A stretch of 64,000 bases of DNA. Source: Candidatus Uhrbacteria bacterium (lineage in GTDB: Bacteria > Patescibacteriota > Patescibacteriia > UBA9934). The notes under the pieces were generated by a model. It was given only the letters and a program-made list of their open reading frames with translations. It was not told the origin of the DNA and searched no databases. The stretch covers positions 6,240 to 70,239 of the forward strand of contig CALRHD010000001.1 of assembly GCA_943359325.1 (NCBI GenBank). Reading direction: 5' to 3'. A program made the translations under genes and the position numbers. The first letter of the stretch is position 1. The number at the start of each line of letters is the position of its first letter. This document shows, piece after piece, positions 23,512 to 58,466 of the stretch.

Positions 23512-23558
23512 ACAGTGCCGAGCACTGACAACACCAGGCACTGTCAGTGCCTGGTGTT
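23512..23558. repeat. palindrome family copy A (small hairpin + 15-bp-arm perfect palindrome)
   Basis: CAGTGC-CGA-GCACTG at 23512-23526. Then CAACACCAGGCACTG-T-CAGTGCCTGGTGTTG at 23528-23558. It lies between the divergent rsmB-like gene (start 23497) and leuS (start 23608). Confidence 0.8.
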
Positions 23559-33248: not shown

Positions 33249-33279
33249 CAACACTACGCACTGACAGTGCGTAGTGTTG
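33249..33279. repeat. palindrome family copy B
   Basis: CAACACTACGCACTG-A-CAGTGCGTAGTGTTG, followed by ATAAT. It lies about 67 bp upstream of the rpsL start. Confidence 0.8.
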
Positions 33280-33345: not shown

Positions 33346-33786
33346 ATGCCTACAATCAATCAATTGATCCGTAAGGGTCGTACTCCTAATAAAACGAAGA
33401 GCAAGTCGCCGGCGTTGCAATATACGCTCGACTCTTTGCATCGCAAGCGCACGGTGCTCCCGAAGGGTTCTCCGTTCAAACGCGGTGTGTGTGTGCAGGT
33501 TCGCACCATGACGCCAAAAAAGCCAAACTCGGCACTCCGCAAAATTGCGCGTGTGCGTTTGAGTAACGGCACCGAAGTTACTGCCTATATTCCCGGCGAA
33601 GGTCACAACTTGCAGGAGCACTCGATTGTGATGATTCGTGGTGGTCGTGTGAAAGATCTTCCTGGTGTGCGTTATCATATTGTTCGCGGTCGCTACGACG
33701 CAACGGGTGTCGAAGGTCGTAATCGTGGTCGTTCACGCTACGGTGCAAAGCGCCCGAAAGCAAAAAAGAAGGTCGAAAAGAAATAA
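33346..33786 (+). CDS. rpsL: 30S ribosomal protein S12
   Basis: Contains [48 protein letters not shown], and a C-terminal basic tail. Confidence 0.97.
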
Positions 33787-33854: not shown

Positions 33855-34322
33855 ATGCGTGGTAAACAAGCCCCCAAACGAGAGATGATTCCCGACTTTA
33901 AGTTCGGGAATGTTGTCGTTACCAAGCTCATTAATTACGTCATGAAGAGCGGCAAGAAAACGGCGGCAGAGCACATTGTGTACGATTGTTTTGATATTAT
34001 TGCTGCGGAGACGAAAGAAAATCCGATGGATGTCTTTGACAACGCACTCAAGAACGTTACGCCGACGGTCGAAGTGAAGAGCAAGCGTGTCGGCGGTGCA
34101 AACTACCAAGTACCGATTCCTGTACGTGGTGAGCGCCGCAACGCATTGGCGTTCCGATGGATTTTGGGCGCAGCACGCGGCAAGAAAGGTCGTCCGATGT
34201 GCGAAAAACTCGCCGAAGAATTGATGGCAGCAGCACGCGGCGAAGGCGAAGCATTCAAAAAGAAGCTCGACGTGCAGCGCATGGCAGACGCCAACCGCGC
34301 ATTCGCACACTTGGCCCGATAA
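33855..34322 (+). CDS. rpsG: 30S ribosomal protein S7
   Basis: 155 aa, ending [17 protein letters not shown]...ANRAFAHLA. Confidence 0.97.
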
Positions 34323-34327
34323 TTTAT

Positions 34328-36415
34328 ATGCAAAGAGACTATCCCCTTGATCACGTTCGCAACATTGGCATCATTGCCCACATTGACGCGGGTAAAACCA
34401 CGACGACAGAGCGCGTGCTTTTTTACACGGGCAAAAAACATAAAATTGGCGAAGTGCACGAAGGCGAGGCGACCATGGACTGGATGGAGCAGGAACAGGA
34501 GCGCGGCATCACCATTACCGCTGCCGCGACGACCTGTTTTTGGAAAGGTCACCGCATTAACATTATCGATACTCCAGGGCACGTCGACTTTACTGTAGAG
34601 GTCGAGCGTTCTCTTCGTGTGCTCGATGGCGGTGTGACGGTGTTCGACGGTGTTGCGGGCGTTGAGCCGCAGTCCGAAACCGTGTGGCACCAAGCCGACA
34701 AGTACGGTGTGCCGCGTATTTGCTACATCAACAAGCTCGATCGTACCGGCGCTGATTTCTACAAAGATCTTGATTCAATCCACAAACGTCTCACCACGCA
34801 GGCATTCCCGATTCAGTTGCCGATTGGTGTGGAGTCAAACTTTTTGGGTATCATCGACCTTTTCACTCGAAAGGCGTTCATGTATCGCGATGACATGGGG
34901 AAGATTGTCGACGAAGTGGAAGTGCCAGAAGAATATAAGGCAAAGACCGAAGAGTACCGCGCAAAGCTCGTCGAAGCGATTGTTGAACACGACGAAGCAC
35001 TCATGGAGCGGTATTTGGGTGGTGAAGATTTGGGTGTCGACGAACTAAAGGCGGCGCTTCGTAAGGGTGTCGTCGCGATGAAAATTTTCCCGGTGTTGTG
35101 TGGGTCGTCTCTCAAAAACAAGGGCGTGCAGCAAATGTTGGATGCGGTCGTGGAGTTTTTGCCGTCGCCGCTCGATGTTCCGCCGATTACGGGTTTTGAT
35201 CCTGACGACGAAGAAAAAGTCACTGCGTGTATTCCGTCTGACACCGCGCCGTTCGCTGCGCTTGCGTTCAAAATTGCCGCAGATCCATTTGTAGGCAAGC
35301 TCGCATTTTTTCGCGTGTATTCTGGTTCGGTCAAAGCAGGGAGTTACATCTTAAATACGGCAACAGGCGAGAAGGAGCGTTTGTCGCGTATTGTGCGTTT
35401 GCACGCAAATTCTCGTGAAGACGTGGAGGAAGTGTTTGCAGGAGAAATTGCTGCTGCTGTCGGTCTTCGTGGCACGATGACCGGCCATACACTTTGTGAT
35501 CCCGACCATCCGATTGTGCTTGAGAACATTACGTTCGCGTTGCCGGTTATTTCGCAAGCACTTGAACCGAAAACAAAAGGTGATCAAGAAAAAATGGGCG
35601 TTGCGCTTCAGAAACTTTCGGAAGAGGATCCGACGTTCCATGTGCGTACCGACACGGACACGCTCCAGACGATTATTTCGGGTATGGGCGAATTGCACCT
35701 CGAAATCATGGTCGACCGCATGAAGCGCGAGTATGGCGTCGAGGCAAACGTCGGAAATCCGCAAGTGAGCTATCGCGAGACGATTCGTGGCAACGCTGAG
35801 GGCGAAGGGAAGTACATCAAACAGTCTGGCGGTCGCGGTCAATATGGCCATTGCTGGTTGCGCGTGGAGCCGTTTGTTGACCCTGAGGGTGAAAACTTTA
35901 CGTTTGAGGACGAGGTGAAGGGCGGCGCGATTCCAAAGGAATTTATTACGCCAATCGAGAAAGGTGCGCGTGAAGCGATGGATCGCGGTATTCTTGCGGG
36001 ATACCCACTCATTAACATCAAAGCGACGGTGTACGACGGCAGCTACCACGACGTCGACAGTAACGAAGCGGCGTTTAAGATGGCGGGCAGCATGGCATTC
36101 CAAGAGGCGTGTCGTAAAGCGAAACCTGTTATTCTCGAGCCGGTCATGAAGGTTGAAGCGGTGACGCCAGAGGACTTTATGGGTACGGTTGTCGGCGACT
36201 TGAATGCGAAGCGCGGACAAATTCAGGAAATGGGCGACCGTGGAACAGTGAAATTCGTTCGCGCCATGGTGCCGCTCGCAGAAATGTTCGGCTACTCGAC
36301 GTCGCTTCGTTCCATGACGCAAGGTCGTGCAAGTTACTCCATGGAATTTGGAGAATACCAGGAAGTGCCGCGCAACATTGCAGAAGAGATTATCAAGAAG
36401 CGCAGCGCGAAATAG
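34328..36415 (+). CDS. fusA: elongation factor G
   Basis: 695 aa from the ATG at 34328 ([29 protein letters not shown]). The track ORF at 34157 is an out-of-context upstream extension that overlaps rpsG. Confidence 0.97.
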
Positions 36416-36428
36416 GTTGGCGCAGAGG

Positions 36429-36470
36429 CGGGGCTTTCGTCGACGAACGACGTGCCCCGTTTTTGTTTTT
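36429..36470 (+). terminator. intrinsic terminator after fusA
   Basis: CGGGGC-[CGTCGACGAACGACG]-GCCCCG hairpin followed by TTTTTGTTTTT. Confidence 0.7.
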
Positions 36471-36497
36471 GACGGTATATTTTTGGGGATGTATAGT
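36469..36497 (+). promoter_or_regulatory. sigma70-like promoter for the TA module
   Basis: TTGACG, then a 17-nt spacer, then TATAGT. It sits about 25 bp upstream of the antitoxin start. Confidence 0.55.
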
Positions 36498-36522
36498 ATA
36501 AGAAGAAATAAGCAAAATTCTT

Positions 36523-36726
36523 ATGGCTTCAACGATCACTATTTCACTGCCCGCAGTCACGATAAAAAAAGTTCGTGCGCAAGTGGCAACGGGGCAGTTT
36601 GCTTCGACGAGTGAATTTTTTCGCGACCTTCTTCGTCATTGGGAGGAGCAGAGTTTGGTAAAACAAATTGGGCGGAATAAAAAAGAAAAACCTATCAAAT
36701 TGACATCATTTCAGGATTGGCAATAA
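36523..36726 (+). CDS. ribbon-helix-helix antitoxin (ParD/CopG-like)
   Basis: 67 aa. An N-terminal beta-strand plus two helices (ISLPAVTIKKVRAQVATGQFASTSEFFRDLLRHWEE). It lies directly upstream of the toxin with a 6-nt gap. Confidence 0.7.
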   Translation: MASTITISLPAVTIKKVRAQVATGQFASTSEFFRDLLRHWEEQSLVKQIGRNKKEKPIKLTSFQDWQ

Positions 36727-36732
36727 GCCAAT

Positions 36733-36990
36733 ATGGAGGTGTATTATTATGCGAGTTTTTTGCGTCAGGTAAAGAAACTTCCAAAGTCAATTCGTGCAGT
36801 GGCTATTGAACGGACGAAGCTTTTTATCAAAAATCCTCACGATCCATCACTAAAACTTCATAAACTGCACGGACAACTCAAAGGCCATTTTGCATTTTGG
36901 GTGGATTTTCGTATAAGAATTATCCTAGAAATAAAATCAGAACGGGCATATTTCCATGCTATCGGTGATCATGGTGTATATAATACATAA
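36733..36990 (+). CDS. ParE/RelE-family toxin
   Basis: 85 aa. It has the RelE/ParE fold pattern and a C-terminal ...FHAIGDHGVY, which is typical of ParE/RelE toxins. Confidence 0.7.
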   Translation: MEVYYYASFLRQVKKLPKSIRAVAIERTKLFIKNPHDPSLKLHKLHGQLKGHFAFWVDFRIRIILEIKSERAYFHAIGDHGVYNT

Positions 36991-37080
36991 CGAAGCTGTT
37001 TTATTGGGCAAAGATTTTAACCATGGTTTTGTCACTCTACGTGAGATGTGTTATGACACCCATGTCACAAGGAGCTCCCC

Positions 37081-37293
37081 ATGTCCGAAGTTATCACGAG
37101 ACTTGAGCGTGCAGAGAATGATTTGTCTCAATTTCGCCGTGCCGCAGCAATCATCGTCCTCTTATCGCCGTTGATCTTCTTCGATCGATTCAGGGCCTGT
37201 CATCGGTGGAATACGTGCAGCTTGGCATTACGCCCGAGGAATATAGTGCCGTGCGAAAATTTGCGACGGGGTCGCCATGACCATTCGCATTAA
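37081..37293 (+). CDS. small ORF with Shine-Dalgarno, possibly frameshifted (continues in +2 frame to TGA 37278-37280)
   Basis: AAGGAG lies 7 nt upstream of the ATG. The frame-A product turns nonsensical after about 35 aa. Frame B reads SIQGLSSVEYVQLGITPEEYSAVRKFATGSP and ends in an ATGA overlap with the next ORF. Confidence 0.25.
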   Translation: MSEVITRLERAENDLSQFRRAAAIIVLLSPLIFFDRFRACHRWNTCSLALRPRNIVPCENLRRGRHDHSH

Positions 37294-37468
37294 CCTTGTT
37301 GAGTGGTTACAAAAGCGTGAACGAGCTTTGCGTCGTGCAATGAAAAAAGCGTACGACGCTCCTGCGTCGCCCGAAGAACAATGGAGCAAAGAACACGCAG
37401 TCGACGTATCGGGAACTCGCGCGCTTCTCAAGAACGCTCTCCGCAAGCTCGGCCGCCATTCGTCGTAG
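37277..37468 (+). CDS. small basic ORF translationally coupled to the preceding ORF
   Basis: 63 aa (MTIRINLVEWLQKRERALRRAMKKAYD...). The ATGA overlap links it to the upstream reading frame. Confidence 0.3.
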   Translation: MTIRINLVEWLQKRERALRRAMKKAYDAPASPEEQWSKEHAVDVSGTRALLKNALRKLGRHSS

Positions 37469-37511
37469 CCCCGCCCGTCATCGATCCCCGATGACCGCGG
37501 GGTGTTTTGTT

Positions 37512-37982
37512 TTACACATTTGTTTTTGCATGCAACCACAGTAGCTCGAACATGGTGCGGAGCGTCACCGACGTATCGCCGCTTGTGACAAGAATGACGG
37601 AATTTTCTTTGCGCGTAGTAATGAACGCGGCTTCATTTTCGAATAGCAAAATACTTGCGGGCAAGACAACGTCGCTTGGGAGGAATCGCGACTCGCGTAA
37701 TTCGTTTTTGTCGCGTGCAACAAACTTGTGTGTTTCACGATTCTCGGGAATGAGCTGACGACTTCGTATGCCGCGTTTAATGCGCTCGGCAATAATGCGC
37801 TGCATGAGGTATCGTTCTTTGACGCCGCTTTCGTATAGCCTTCGCCAAAATTGTTTAAACCCATCGGTGCCCTCATACATTGTGACGCCTGTTTTCTCGT
37901 GCGCAGTGCCGTGGAGCGACGAGAGAAGAGGGAGGATCGCTTCGAATGTCCGTTGGCGTTCCTCAAGTTTGCGCAAAAACAT
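37512..37982 (-). CDS. hypothetical protein
   Basis: 156 aa with an ATG start at 37980-37982 and protein-like composition. Family unknown. Palindrome copy C lies about 70 bp upstream. Confidence 0.45.
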   Translation of the reverse strand: MFLRKLEERQRTFEAILPLLSSLHGTAHEKTGVTMYEGTDGFKQFWRRLYESGVKERYLMQRIIAERIKRGIRSRQLIPENRETHKFVARDKNELRESRFLPSDVVLPASILLFENEAAFITTRKENSVILVTSGDTSVTLRTMFELLWLHAKTNV

Positions 37983-38052
37983 TTCTGGTTGCTCGGCAAC
38001 ATAGTGTGTGCGGCCTTTGTTTTATTCACACGTTGTCCACACTTAGCACTGT

Positions 38053-38086
38053 CAGTGCTTAGTGTTGATAATACGAAAACAAATCG
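38053..38086. repeat. palindrome family copy C (one mismatch)
   Basis: GTCCACACTTAGCACTG-T-CAGTGCTTAGTGTTGA, followed by TAAT. Its left arm is nearly identical to copy D, and its right extension matches copy B. Confidence 0.75.
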
Positions 38087-38128
38087 CCCCGCGGCGAGGA
38101 GAGGCTCGGGCGGAGCGATGGAGCAAGT

Positions 38129-38563
38129 CTATTTTTGCGGATTTCCTTTTGCGAAACCGATGAGTGGTCGGTCGGGTAGGAACACTTCGATCTGCCAACA
38201 CATGGGAAGGCGCTCTTTCGCGAATCGCATGCAACAAGCGAGGATGGCCGCGTTCATATTCGTGATGACGAACATGTCTCGCGTTTCTCGATCGAACAGC
38301 CCAACGACGTGTACGATGAGTTCTTCGCCGTGGCCAATAAGGTACCGGTCGCTCGGCATGCTGACAGTCACATGCTCCCGAGTGAGTTCGAGCTCGGGAA
38401 TGTTGGCAACCGCGCCCTTGATCTTCATGATGAGTTGCTCGAGTTCGTGCTGATGACGGTTGATTATTCGAGGTATGCCGTAGATGACGATGTGAGGCAT
38501 TGAAACTCCGAGGGTGCAGCAACATGTTTGCACCGATCGTCGTCTCTGGCAAGACTTGTTCAT
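38129..38563 (-). CDS. hypothetical protein (possible Pro-1 tautomerase-superfamily fold, speculative)
   Basis: The product probably begins MPHIVIYGIPRI, about 123 aa. There is no firm family assignment. Confidence 0.35.
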   Translation of the reverse strand: MNKSCQRRRSVQTCCCTLGVSMPHIVIYGIPRIINRHQHELEQLIMKIKGAVANIPELELTREHVTVSMPSDRYLIGHGEELIVHVVGLFDRETRDMFVITNMNAAILACCMRFAKERLPMCWQIEVFLPDRPLIGFAKGNPQK

Positions 38564-38601
38564 ATTGACGCGCGAGAATTGTCGCCATAAGATGGCGCCA
38601 T

Positions 38602-38991
38602 ATGGTGAACGATCAATTTGAACGCATCATGCGTTTTGCACAACGGACGGGCGATAGGCTTATTGTCACCGACCCGTCGGGGAACGAGCCAGTTGTTATT
38701 ATGGGGCTCGATGAGTACGAGGCGCTTGTGGAAGGTGCGATGGGACCAGACGGTAAATACCCAATGATGGGTGATATCGACATGGATGATGAGGAAGAAG
38801 ATTTTGTGAGCGAGTACGGTGAAGCGCCAACGCTTGAAATTATTGAGGAGCCTGTCATGGAGTCTCCCGTACAGCCGATTATCGACATTCCTACAGAACC
38901 AGAGAAAACTGTGCCAATAATGCAGAATAAAGCCCCAGAAAAACAAGCCGAAATCAACGAAGAGCAGTTTTACTTGGAACCGCTCGGATAA
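38602..38991 (+). CDS. protein with Phd/YefM-like N-terminal domain and long acidic tail
   Basis: The N-terminus ...DRLIVTDPSGNEPVVIMGLDEYEALVEG resembles the YefM/Phd antitoxin core (..ILITR.G..V.VL.S.EEYESL). The C-terminal 70 aa are highly acidic. There is no toxin gene downstream (tuf follows). Confidence 0.45.
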   Translation: MVNDQFERIMRFAQRTGDRLIVTDPSGNEPVVIMGLDEYEALVEGAMGPDGKYPMMGDIDMDDEEEDFVSEYGEAPTLEIIEEPVMESPVQPIIDIPTEPEKTVPIMQNKAPEKQAEINEEQFYLEPLG

Positions 38992-39073
38992 TCACAATCT
39001 CGCTCTTGCGCAATTTTAGGCCTTTTGTTATAGTCTCGGCACTTCACTTTTTAAGAAACCCTTTAATTCAGCT

Positions 39074-40264
39074 ATGGCAGAAGCTTTTTCCCGCAGTAAG
39101 CCGCACGTCAACGTCGGCACCATCGGTCACGTTGACCACGGTAAGACCACGACAACGGCAGCGCTTTTGGCGGTTGCCGCTGGCATGGGTAACGTCGCTC
39201 AAAAGAAGGGCATCGACGATCTCGATAAGTCGCCTGAATCCAAGGCGCGCGGTATTACGATTTCCACCGCACACTGTGAATACGAGACGGCGAATCGTCA
39301 CTACGCACACGTTGACTGTCCAGGACACGCCGATTACGTGAAAAACATGATCACGGGTGCAGCGCAGATGGACGGCGCAATTCTCGTGGTTTCGGCCGCA
39401 GACGGTCCAATGCCGCAAACTCGCGAGCACATTCTTTTGGCCAAACAGGTCGGTGTTCCGTATATTGTTGTGTACTTGAACAAGGTTGACATGGTCGACG
39501 ACCCAGAACTCATCGATCTCGTCGAACAGGAAGTTCGCGATTTGCTCAAGAAATACGATTTCCCAGGCGATGCTGTTCCGGTGATTCGTGGTTCTTCGGC
39601 AAAGGCGCTTGCAAACTTGACGGACGAAGCAGCTATTAAGCCAATTAAAGATCTTTTGAATGCGCTCGACACATACATCCCAGAGCCAGTGCGCGACCTC
39701 GACAAGCCATTTCTCATGCCAGTCGAAGACGTGTTTTCTATTGAAGGTCGTGGCACAGTTGTGACGGGTCGTATTGAACGCGGTCAAATTAAGATCAACG
39801 ACGAAGTTGAAATCGTTGGTTTGAAGGACACCGCAAAAACAGTTGTCACCGGCATTGAAATGTTCAATAAGTCGCTTGACTCTGGTATGGCAGGCGACAA
39901 CGCAGGTATTCTTATCCGCGGCATCAAGAAGGAAGACGTGCAACGCGGTCAGGTGTTGGCGAAACCAGGTTCGGTGAAGCCACACACAAAGTTTGAAGCA
40001 GAAATCCTCGCACTTACGAAGGAAGAGGGCGGTCGTCACAAGCCATTCTTCAAGGGTTACAAGCCGCAATTCTACATTCGTACAACAGATGTTACCGGTG
40101 AAATCACCTTGCCAGAGGGCACGGAAATGGTTATGCCAGGTGACACCGTGAACTGCGTCGTGACGCTTATTGCGCCTGTCGCACTCGAAGAAAAGATGCG
40201 CTTTGCAATCCGCGAGGGTGGCCGTACCGTTGGTGCAGGCGTTGTGGTAAAAATTACTGAGTAA
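39074..40264 (+). CDS. tuf: elongation factor Tu
   Basis: 396 aa with G-domain motifs [17 protein letters not shown] and NKVD. Confidence 0.98.
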
Positions 40265-58431: not shown

Positions 58432-58466
58432 GTCCACACTAAGCACTGACAGTGCTTAGTGTGGAC
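58432..58466. repeat. palindrome family copy D (17-bp perfect arms)
   Basis: GTCCACACTAAGCACTG-A-CAGTGCTTAGTGTGGAC. It lies 33 bp upstream of the scpA start. Confidence 0.8.

Follow-up and report, generated by a model that had tools for sequence, protein, structure and literature searches.

A predicted type II toxin-antitoxin cassette and a tuf-linked Phd/YefM-like gene in the long fusA-tuf interval of a Candidatus Uhrbacteria bacterium

What occupies the long interval between fusA and tuf, the genes encoding EF-G and EF-Tu, in a genome of Candidatus Uhrbacteria, and did its contents arrive as a single unit? The stretch analyzed here, referred to as the window, comprises 64,000 nucleotides (nt) of contig CALRHD010000001.1 (assembly GCA_943359325.1, positions 6,240 to 70,239 of the forward strand), in which rpsL (33346-33786), rpsG (33855-34322) and fusA are followed by the interval in question and then by tuf, rpsJ and the S10 operon. 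The interval measures 2,658 bp, in agreement with the figure of about 2.6 kb in an earlier note on this DNA, and it is unusually long, since fusA and tuf lie only 41-417 bp apart in 50 phylogenetically diverse reference genomes carrying both genes on one fetched locus. The earlier note had taken these 2.6 kb for one accessory insertion, acquired recently or marking a stabilized hotspot, with a self-contained toxin-antitoxin module accompanied by decayed small open reading frames (ORFs) and by a Phd/YefM-like gene. We find instead that the gap is composite, consisting of a toxin-antitoxin cassette, orphan small ORFs, a truncated TrmB-family gene, an orphan gene (o123) and a Phd-like gene, hereafter phd, which is linked to tuf. 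In the explanation that we regard as probable, the base layout in the clade would be fusA, a terminator, phd with its own promoter and tuf with its own promoter; the space behind the fusA terminator would be a variable slot, filled in this genome by the cassette, two orphan small ORFs (o70 and o63, one of them frameshifted), a TrmB gene devoid of its winged helix-turn-helix (wHTH) domain and o123; and phd would be tied to tuf. The simplest reading of the comparisons described below is that fusA, phd, tuf is the ancestral order.

The loci most informative for these comparisons are two Hainich groundwater contigs, L085 and L086, whose EF-G is 89-90% identical to that of the window, and the EF-Tu of L085 is 90% identical to its window counterpart. 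EF-G identity is 83% with locus L089 and 69% with L001, the latter being the best match in the reference-genome scan. Of the relatives bearing a name, Candidatus Uhrbacteria bacterium GW2011_GWD2_52_7 (GCA_001004485.1; EF-G 83% and EF-Tu 88% identical) comes closest, which places the organism in the Patescibacteria/CPR; at least two other sequencing runs hold contigs identical to the window over the stretch they cover.

The guanine plus cytosine (GC) content of the interval deviates at 36500-37100 only, where it drops to 36-40% against approximately 51% in the window, and this dip coincides exactly with the cassette (Table 1). DNA similarity to the cassettes of L085 and of L095/L096 starts at the T-tract and -35 element, includes the leader and stops at the toxin stop codon, which sets the limits of the unit at about 36459-36990 and, together with the presence of its own promoter, bears out its description as a self-contained module. 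A fusA terminator immediately followed by a near-consensus promoter had also been proposed, and both were confirmed: the region 36416-36475 folds with -30 kcal/mol (z = -4.33, none of 200 shuffles as stable) ahead of a T-tract, and the promoter is conserved in the homologous cassettes, the -35 element being identical in four aligned cassettes and the -10 element common to L095/L096 and different in L085. The first gene of the cassette encodes, as suggested before, a ribbon-helix-helix (RHH) protein, which reaches 23.6 bits with Pfam RHH_1, exceeding the 20.5-bit gathering cut-off, and matches the ParD-type family TIGR02606 (E 2.4e-5) and a PHROG annotated as antitoxin (E 8e-4). It ends 6 nt ahead of the toxin ATG in the same orientation, and the pair is kept together in L085, L086, L095 and L096. 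As part of the explanation outlined above, we consider the RHH and RelE-superfamily pair to be, in all probability, a genuine self-contained type II toxin-antitoxin module with an activity predicted from that of its family.

The second protein had been labeled ParE/RelE-like, and of this label the RelE part stands. In the profile check proposed at the time the antitoxin passes with RHH_1, and the 85-residue protein shows direct matches to YafQ families that are weak (Pfam, E 0.025; TIGR00053, E 0.0013), its RelE fold being recognized by structure prediction. The AlphaFold model displays a beta-alpha-alpha-beta-beta-beta topology (strands at residues 2-5, 52-57, 61-68 and 71-79, helices at 7-14 and 18-33), and its 50 best Foldseek matches in the PDB all have the RelE fold (toxins of the RelE, YoeB, YafQ or HigB type, or further proteins sharing it), with template modelling (TM) scores of 0.55-0.76, a best E of 4.3e-4 and 11-22% identity to solved toxins. 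No established ParE gyrase poison is present among these 50 matches, one entry of which is named 'YoeB/ParE'. The immediate family is confined to a few uncultured Patescibacteria, a word-indexed search recovering 5 proteins only, and a profile search retrieved 814 relatives at E<=0.001 in 1.84 billion representative proteins. Among the 120 sequences aligned from this family (119 of the best hits and the window protein), 64 match YafQ_toxin of Pfam, 50 HigB-like_toxin and 31 ParE_toxin, which thus ranks third. Searched against PDB sequences, the 120-sequence profile finds the structures of HigB, HP0894/HP0892 and YoeB (E 1.7e-5 to 3e-3), while a profile of 6 sequences was not significant (HigB, E 0.28); a PHROG match is likewise RelE-like (E 1.5e-5). 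Across the 120 relatives L45, R62 and Y83 are invariant and H43, G47, G78 and H80 nearly so, and judged by motif position, rather than by a structural superposition, these conserved residues may correspond to H50, H87 and F91 of YafQ. The RelE-fold model, the structure matches and the family profile matches together support the assignment of the predicted toxin to the mRNA-interferase branch (RelE/YafQ/HigB/YoeB) and not to the ParE gyrase poisons.

Is the pair still maintained as a toxin-antitoxin system, or is it a degenerate or domesticated remnant, for example a pair acting only in transcriptional regulation? The latter would fit a toxin lying under all curated family cut-offs, an immediate toxin family as tiny as the 5 proteins of the word search, and the finding that no operator repeats were identified. 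Nevertheless, both ORFs are intact in all copies, and between the window and L085 the proportion of nonsynonymous differences (pN) is far below that of synonymous differences (pS), at 0.15 and 0.74 for the antitoxin and 0.18 and 0.86 for the toxin. With pS near saturation and pN so low, purifying selection has acted on both cassette genes from a rather old divergence onwards. Moreover, H43, R62, H80 and Y83, at positions typical of superfamily catalytic sites, are invariant or nearly invariant in the 120 relatives, and promoter and leader are conserved along with the genes. We therefore regard a remnant as quite unlikely, and retain the reading of the pair as a maintained module.

The same comparisons bear on the age and mobility of the cassette. 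L085 and L086 carry the same pair directly 3' of fusA (75% identity for the antitoxin and 74% for the toxin in L085), and L095/L096 carry it in another context without fusA (84% and 74%). It was not found after fusA in L001, L087, L089, L093 and L094, whose EF-G is 69-83% identical to that of the window. From its absence in these five relatives and its different location in L095/L096 the cassette is judged to be accessory, as had been supposed, and the synteny comparison shows that it is not universal between fusA and tuf. Recent acquisition, on the other hand, is disfavored by the shared site in L085/L086, the near-saturated synonymous sites and the purifying selection, and the cassette is thus best described on sequence grounds as accessory and not recent. 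With regard to its action, the type II scheme of DinJ-YafQ and RelBE is established knowledge, and by analogy with it the cassette promoter would be bound and repressed by a dimer of the RHH antitoxin, whose C-terminal tail would neutralize the toxin; once the labile antitoxin is lost, the freed RelE-fold protein would arrest translation by cutting ribosome-bound mRNA.

The last gene before tuf gives a different answer to the question of origin. It had been listed within the island as a Phd/YefM-like protein with an acidic tail; the similarity to PF02604 stands, and its role as a component of a toxin-antitoxin pair does not. Homologues number 92, of which 87 match PF02604 at E<0.01 (best 4.4e-8). 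The family is built of an N-domain of about 45 residues (…RTGDRLIVTD…LDEYEALL), a variable acidic or proline-rich linker and an invariant C-terminus, EEQFY[LM]EP[LIV], and the codons of this motif vary synonymously between lineages, which points to conservation at the protein level. In the predicted model the N-domain adopts an alpha-beta-beta-alpha arrangement, the linker is disordered and the last nine residues have a predicted local distance difference test (pLDDT) value of 82; searched against PDB sequences, the family profile gave no match. EEQFYLEP occurs only once in the window, and hence there is no sign of a docking motif common to several proteins. Locus L001 (CAZYKS010000035.1), labeled 'uncultured Gammaproteobacteria', displays the Patescibacteria-type order fusA-phd-tuf and is probably misbinned or mislabeled; its Phd-like protein ends in EDRQYFEDVDY and not in EEQFYLEP.

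The position of phd is as constant as its terminal peptide. In 9 of 9 distinct contexts tuf is the next gene, including L091 and L092, where no fusA is called within 5 kb upstream, and tuf lies downstream of phd in 69 of 80 metagenome loci; in 68 of these the two starts are 458-840 nt apart and in the remaining one 1,862 nt. Of the 11 loci in which tuf is lacking, nine break off no more than 630 nt past the phd start. The EF-Tu proteins of the phd-carrying clade share 60-89% identity, and the genes upstream of phd are unrelated to each other between lineages. No toxin gene adjoins phd in the 9 contexts studied in detail, and a RelE-family profile found no toxin beside phd in the window or in the 80 loci other than in separate cassettes. 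On this gene order, phd is a clade-wide neighbor of tuf and forms part neither of an insertion nor of the cassette, and it is consequently not accessory, so that the idea of an accessory insertion holds for the cassette and fails for phd.

These data decide against the view of the entire 2.6 kb as a single toxin-antitoxin island of recent acquisition, in which phd would be an orphaned second antitoxin and the small ORFs decayed cargo. Such an island would account for a gap about ten-fold the typical bacterial size, for the presence of a genuine toxin-antitoxin pair, for the antitoxin-type similarity and disordered acidic tail of the Phd-like protein, and for several ORFs being orphan or damaged. 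However, the compositional deviation is limited to 36500-37100 and the similarity of the cassette to its homologues ends with the toxin stop codon; phd precedes tuf across a clade as broad as the EF-Tu identities indicate, mostly in toxin-free loci; homologues of the TrmB gene and of o123 accompany phd-tuf in the distant locus L091; and the cassette is also present in a species separated from this one by near-saturated synonymous sites. One recent island is therefore highly improbable and already contradicted by synteny, and neither the single insertion nor the recent date proposed in the earlier note can be upheld.

Transcription signals of phd and tuf are conserved along with their order. 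The sequence TTGAC[AG]-17-TAAGAT precedes the phd homologues of L085, L087, L089, L092, L093 and L094, and in the window, L087, L089, L091 and L092 the -10 element ends 8-10 nt before the ATG with no Shine-Dalgarno sequence, which suggests that the phd mRNA may be leaderless. Behind this promoter, the L085, L093 and L094 loci have a leader of 30-40 nt. Short inverted repeats flank the phd -10 element and are lineage-specific (GCCAT/ATGGC in the window, AGGGG/CCCCT in L087). Ahead of tuf, cTTGCGn-N17-TA[CT]ACT is conserved in eight related loci; its 17-nt spacer is T-rich and ends in TTTTGC or TTTTGT in most of them. Part of the tuf leader (…cggcacc…ccttaattc…) is conserved across lineages in the phd-tuf spacers of L085-L094, and L085, L093 and L094 have a leader some 100 nt longer than that of the window.

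From domain similarity and synteny alone, we infer for the Phd-like protein a probable role as a small dimer that binds DNA or serves as an adaptor and that contacts a partner through its invariant terminal peptide. Alternatively, it could be a true antitoxin with its toxin gene at another site, in which case its place before tuf would be due to chance or would offer protection, such as from a Doc-type kinase that targets EF-Tu; Doc is known to phosphorylate EF-Tu. The PF02604 similarity in 87 of the 92 homologues is in line with this proposal, as is the combination of folded N-domain, disordered tail and conserved terminal peptide, an architecture typical of type II antitoxins. Against it stand the 9 detailed contexts devoid of an adjacent toxin gene, the RelE-family profile, which revealed no further toxin in the window or the 80 loci beyond the cassettes described, and the occurrence of the family as a single-copy gene in one fixed position throughout the clade, unlike typical toxin-antitoxin genes. 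We consider a trans-acting antitoxin possible, though unlikely, and favor a local regulator or adaptor. A more specific proposal, which we put forward tentatively and do not hold to be the likelier outcome, is the domestication of an antitoxin-type protein: in Uhrbacteria-like Patescibacteria the Phd-like protein would have settled as a fixed, clade-specific part of the EF-Tu locus, where, as a small dimeric factor, it would either regulate tuf expression through the adjacent conserved promoter or use its terminal peptide to dock onto EF-Tu or a different component of translation. The preceding interval would in that case act as a stable landing pad, capturing RelE-type cassettes again and again.

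How variable is the slot upstream of phd? In 31 metagenome loci with both genes, the fusA-to-phd interval ranges from 89 to 4,957 bp (median 835 bp, nine below 230 bp). Depending on the lineage it contains APH-family kinases (five loci), a class III aminotransferase, RecQ, Bro-N, an ABC ATPase, NUDIX, TrmB and many orphans; neither integrases nor transposases were seen in the slot, and none of 20 large ORFs from the gaps of other lineages is an integrase. In L104 the last codons of fusA and a terminator are followed by a 67-residue putative antitoxin, a 90-residue RelE-like toxin, a NUDIX gene, phd and tuf. The L104 toxin is 30% identical to that of the window and scores 26.5 bits with the HigB-like family, the accompanying antitoxin is unrelated to that of the window, and the two genes are accordingly described as a second, independent putative toxin-antitoxin pair occupying the same slot. 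The suggestion of a stabilized hotspot, made as the alternative to recent acquisition, thus agrees with both the range of interval sizes and the contents of L104. Because the slot runs from the fusA terminator to the phd promoter and so falls between separate transcription units, it can be expected to tolerate gene gain and loss.

Some further observations concern the contents of the slot. The APH-family phosphotransferase genes (PF01636, E 1e-22 to 1e-27) lie in the fusA-phd interval at L120 1888-2904, L135 2003-3031, L144 1889-2911, L152 4657-5694 and L173 1807-2820, and are sometimes accompanied by the class III aminotransferase gene; an Aminoglyc_resit/NTP_transf_5 protein is encoded nearby in L091, so that kinase or nucleotidyl-transferase genes recur beside translation-factor genes. 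In L097 (1-1294) the toxin is directly followed by homologues of the 116-residue and 133-residue genes of L085, without the 272-residue, TrmB and DUF3307 genes present in L085, and from this different arrangement gene turnover inside the slot seems to be rapid among close relatives. In L084 (ERZ1286166 contig_3966, 84 kb), fusA, the toxin-antitoxin pair, TrmB and tuf are each split over several frames, which looks like a low-accuracy assembly of an L085 relative and not like true pseudogenes.

The comparisons establish the fold and family ties of the toxin, the coupling of the two genes, the conserved promoter, purifying selection, mobility and the variability of the slot, and the explanation set out at the beginning appears probable as a whole. 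Several points nevertheless weigh against it. The 85-residue protein is below all Pfam and NCBIfam cut-offs (15.3 against 30 bits; 19.4 against 87), and its model is moderately confident only (pLDDT 63, from a 5-sequence alignment). The RNase activity, neutralization and autoregulation of the cassette are drawn by analogy from related systems. Its low GC content (36.8% in the toxin gene and 42.6% in the RHH gene) could partly reflect the gene family itself, the L085 counterparts being also GC-poor, and no integrase, transposase or flanking direct repeats explain its movement, the direct repeats not having been specifically searched for. The Phd-like protein of the window scores 23.6 bits with PF02604, below the 29.8-bit cut-off, over profile positions 12-50 of 74 only, and Foldseek returned nothing significant with its model, YefM/RelJ antitoxins appearing at E of approximately 3-4; as the fold search is not significant, the Phd/YefM assignment stands on sequence profiles over a partial domain. 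In two of the 80 loci, L101 and L108, tuf is missing from at least 1.1 kb of sequence past phd. Finally, the TrmB remnant may be functional and not decayed, since its pN lies far below its pS (0.155 and 0.75 against L085).

This remnant belongs to the part of the interval between cassette and phd, which is the most difficult to interpret. The minus-strand gene, formerly classed as hypothetical and correctly placed downstream of a palindrome, is a TrmB-family gene truncated at its 5' end. Its homology runs past the ORF start up to 38018, with 70-72% identity to residues 70-252 of the 253-residue TrmB protein of L085 and 58% to the TrmB protein of L091; in both loci, of which L091 is distant, the homologue adjoins phd-tuf. 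The wHTH domain (PF01978, residues 15-79 in L085) is missing from the window copy, an in-frame stop lies just upstream, and a Pfam search with the 156-residue ORF gave no TrmB match. As for o123, described before simply as a further hypothetical gene, the ORF is present and has a distant homologue, a 130-residue protein beside TrmB and phd in L091 (30% identity, E 5e-13). A word search in an index of 5.8 billion proteins returned only o123 itself, and PDB sequences gave chance-level matches only. Both o123 and the L091 gene (4221-4613, minus strand) start with MP[HL]IVI[YH]G; a Met-Pro at the N-terminus with a beta-strand next to it recalls the tautomerase superfamily, and no profile or structural test spoke for or against this similarity. 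A terminator-like hairpin follows o123 at about 38084-38099.

The coupling of the two small ORFs by ATGA, and the frameshift in one of them, had been noticed previously and were confirmed by the third-frame reading, in which the distal part of o70 closes with an ATGA overlap onto o63. No homologue of o70 was detected in the related loci and it has no Pfam or PHROG match; o63 has neither a family match nor a homologue in relatives. Two other samples contain o70 in identical or almost identical form, and both small ORFs have a genome-like GC content. Their derivation from the 272-residue and 116-residue genes of L085 was considered and rejected, o63 and the 116-residue protein being unalignable. 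The hairpin behind o63 has a folding energy of -24.3 kcal/mol (z -4.94) and is followed by TGTTTTGTTTT.

It is conceivable, if rather doubtful, that o70, o63 and o123 are not genes at all and that 37000-38560 is non-coding debris of rearrangements around the TrmB gene. None of the three has family matches or close-relative homologues, o70 is frameshifted, and these products are missing from the NCBI and ENA sources. Such debris would scarcely be expected, however, to keep a genome-like GC content, a Shine-Dalgarno-like GGAG ahead of o123 and terminators bracketing the units, nor a distant o123 homologue in the same L091 neighborhood or an ATGA overlap joining the corrected o70 frame to o63. 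The stretch from o70 to o123 is thus preferably read as old, rearranged neighborhood material and not as cargo of the cassette.

The palindrome at the breakpoint of the TrmB gene forms a hairpin of -19.1 kcal/mol (z -3.9), and its core is present in four copies in the window (23531-23557, 33251-33277, 38039-38065 and 58436-58462) against 0.14 expected. The copies follow the consensus ACAC-nnn-GCACTG-N-CAGTGC-nnn-GTGT, each lies 47-82 nt ahead of a start codon, and they precede leuS and a divergent methyltransferase-like gene, rpsL, the truncated TrmB gene and a scpA-like gene. Their variable triplets co-vary between the arms (TAA/TTA, TAC/GTA, CAG/CTG), an indication that the symmetry or the hairpin is maintained. 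The first and third copies (A and C) have a common 3' flank, TGATAAT. Since the core is absent from all 175 related loci, the palindrome seems to be species-specific and unlinked to the TrmB protein. The search for other signs of a mobile or defense element was negative: no tRNA lies in or beside the gap, Rfam at gathering thresholds placing tRNAs elsewhere in the window only; the gap ORFs gave no match to an integrase, transposase or recombinase in Pfam, NCBIfam or PHROG; and PADLOC gave no match for any gap protein.

Table 1. Position of the genes and signals in and around the fusA-tuf interval (numbering of the window)
Feature	Position	Strand	Remarks
fusA (EF-G)	34328..36415	+	left edge of the interval; ORF and translation
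Intrinsic terminator of fusA	36427..36470	+	bulged G+C hairpin, then TTTTTGTTTTT; inverted repeat
Predicted toxin-antitoxin cassette, ~0.53 kb, self-contained	36459..36990	+	promoter, leader, antitoxin, toxin
Cassette promoter TTGACG-17-TATAGT	36469..36497	+	consensus scan, 10/12 matches
67-residue ribbon-helix-helix antitoxin	36523..36726	+	Pfam RHH_1
85-residue RelE-superfamily toxin, YafQ/HigB-like, presumed ribosome-dependent mRNA endonuclease	36733..36990	+	
o70, small ORF, frameshifted	37081..37293	+	three-frame translation; third frame ending in ...AVDLLRSIQGLSSVEYVQLGITPEEYSAVRKFATGSP and a stop
o63, small orphan ORF	37277..37468	+	no family match
Terminator hairpin ending the plus-strand unit	37468..37510	+	abuts the 3' end of the minus-strand ORF
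5'-truncated TrmB-family regulator gene	37512..38018	-	ORF from internal ATG, 37512-37982 (156 residues)
Palindrome, 19-nt arms	38033..38071	.	located precisely where the TrmB gene is truncated; upstream of the minus-strand ORF
o123, 123-residue orphan gene (MPHIVIYG...)	38129..38500	-	ORF; GGAG ahead of the start
Promoter of the Phd-like gene TTGACG-17-TAAGAT	38565..38593	+	scan; -10 ends 8 nt before ATG
129-residue Phd/YefM-like protein	38602..38991	+	conserved N-domain, acidic disordered linker, EEQFYLEP C-terminus
tuf promoter TTGCGC-17-TATAGT	39006..39034	+	phd-tuf spacer; read from sequence
tuf (EF-Tu)	39074..40264	+	right edge of the interval; ORF

Ultra-small, host-dependent bacteria are often assumed to be poor in toxin-antitoxin systems, and the cassette adds a divergent RelE/YafQ-like family from this group, being itself a divergent addition to a well-known kind. 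A core translation-factor locus can hold a long-lived variable slot, and its presence inside the str region is moderately unusual, with a simple explanation in the structure of the locus. If the locus holds new biology, it is in the tuf-linked Phd-like family and nowhere else: no description of such a gene beside tuf in these bacteria was found in the literature searched, and the solitary protein is a candidate for a regulator or partner of the translation machinery specific to this lineage, which belongs to a group that lacks a genetic system and has many unexplained conserved small proteins. If the domestication proposed above were true, the protein would be an undescribed lineage-specific accessory factor of the translation apparatus. 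For annotation, the locus advises caution, as an antitoxin-domain match beside a real toxin-antitoxin cassette may not belong to that cassette.

A comparison with known systems places each of the three identified elements. The TrmB ORF is 58-72% identical to the C-terminal two-thirds of the 253-residue TrmB proteins (PF01978) encoded near phd-tuf in L085 and L091, but unlike these it has lost the N-terminal winged-helix DNA-binding domain, and therefore it cannot act as a usual DNA-binding regulator of that family. The cassette resembles DinJ-YafQ and RelBE in having the antitoxin gene first, a 6-nt gap, proteins of 67 and 85 residues, an RHH N-domain in the antitoxin, a RelE fold of b-a-a-b-b-b topology in the toxin and its own sigma-70-type promoter, and the conserved C-terminal His, Arg and Tyr of the toxin recall the G-x-H...(F/Y) motif of YafQ. 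It differs from them in the low identity of its toxin to solved toxins (11-22%) and its sub-cut-off scores in the YafQ, HigB and ParE families of Pfam, in the confinement of its immediate family to a few uncultured Patescibacteria, and in sitting between fusA and tuf and not on a plasmid, prophage or island. Among solved structures the best profile matches are HigB of Proteus vulgaris and HP0892/HP0894 of H. pylori (E 1.7e-5 to 2e-3); in HigBA, however, the toxin gene comes first and the antitoxin is of the helix-turn-helix type, whereas in the window the antitoxin comes first and is of the RHH type. Lastly, the N-terminal 45 residues of the tuf-linked protein match the alpha1-beta2-beta3-alpha2 core of Phd/YefM (PF02604) and its C-terminal half is disordered, but the first beta-strand of the domain is missing and no Doc or YoeB toxin is adjacent; the long acidic or proline-rich linker leading to EEQFY[LM]EP sets it further apart from Phd/YefM, as does its occurrence throughout the clade as a single-copy gene with its own promoter, fixed before tuf.

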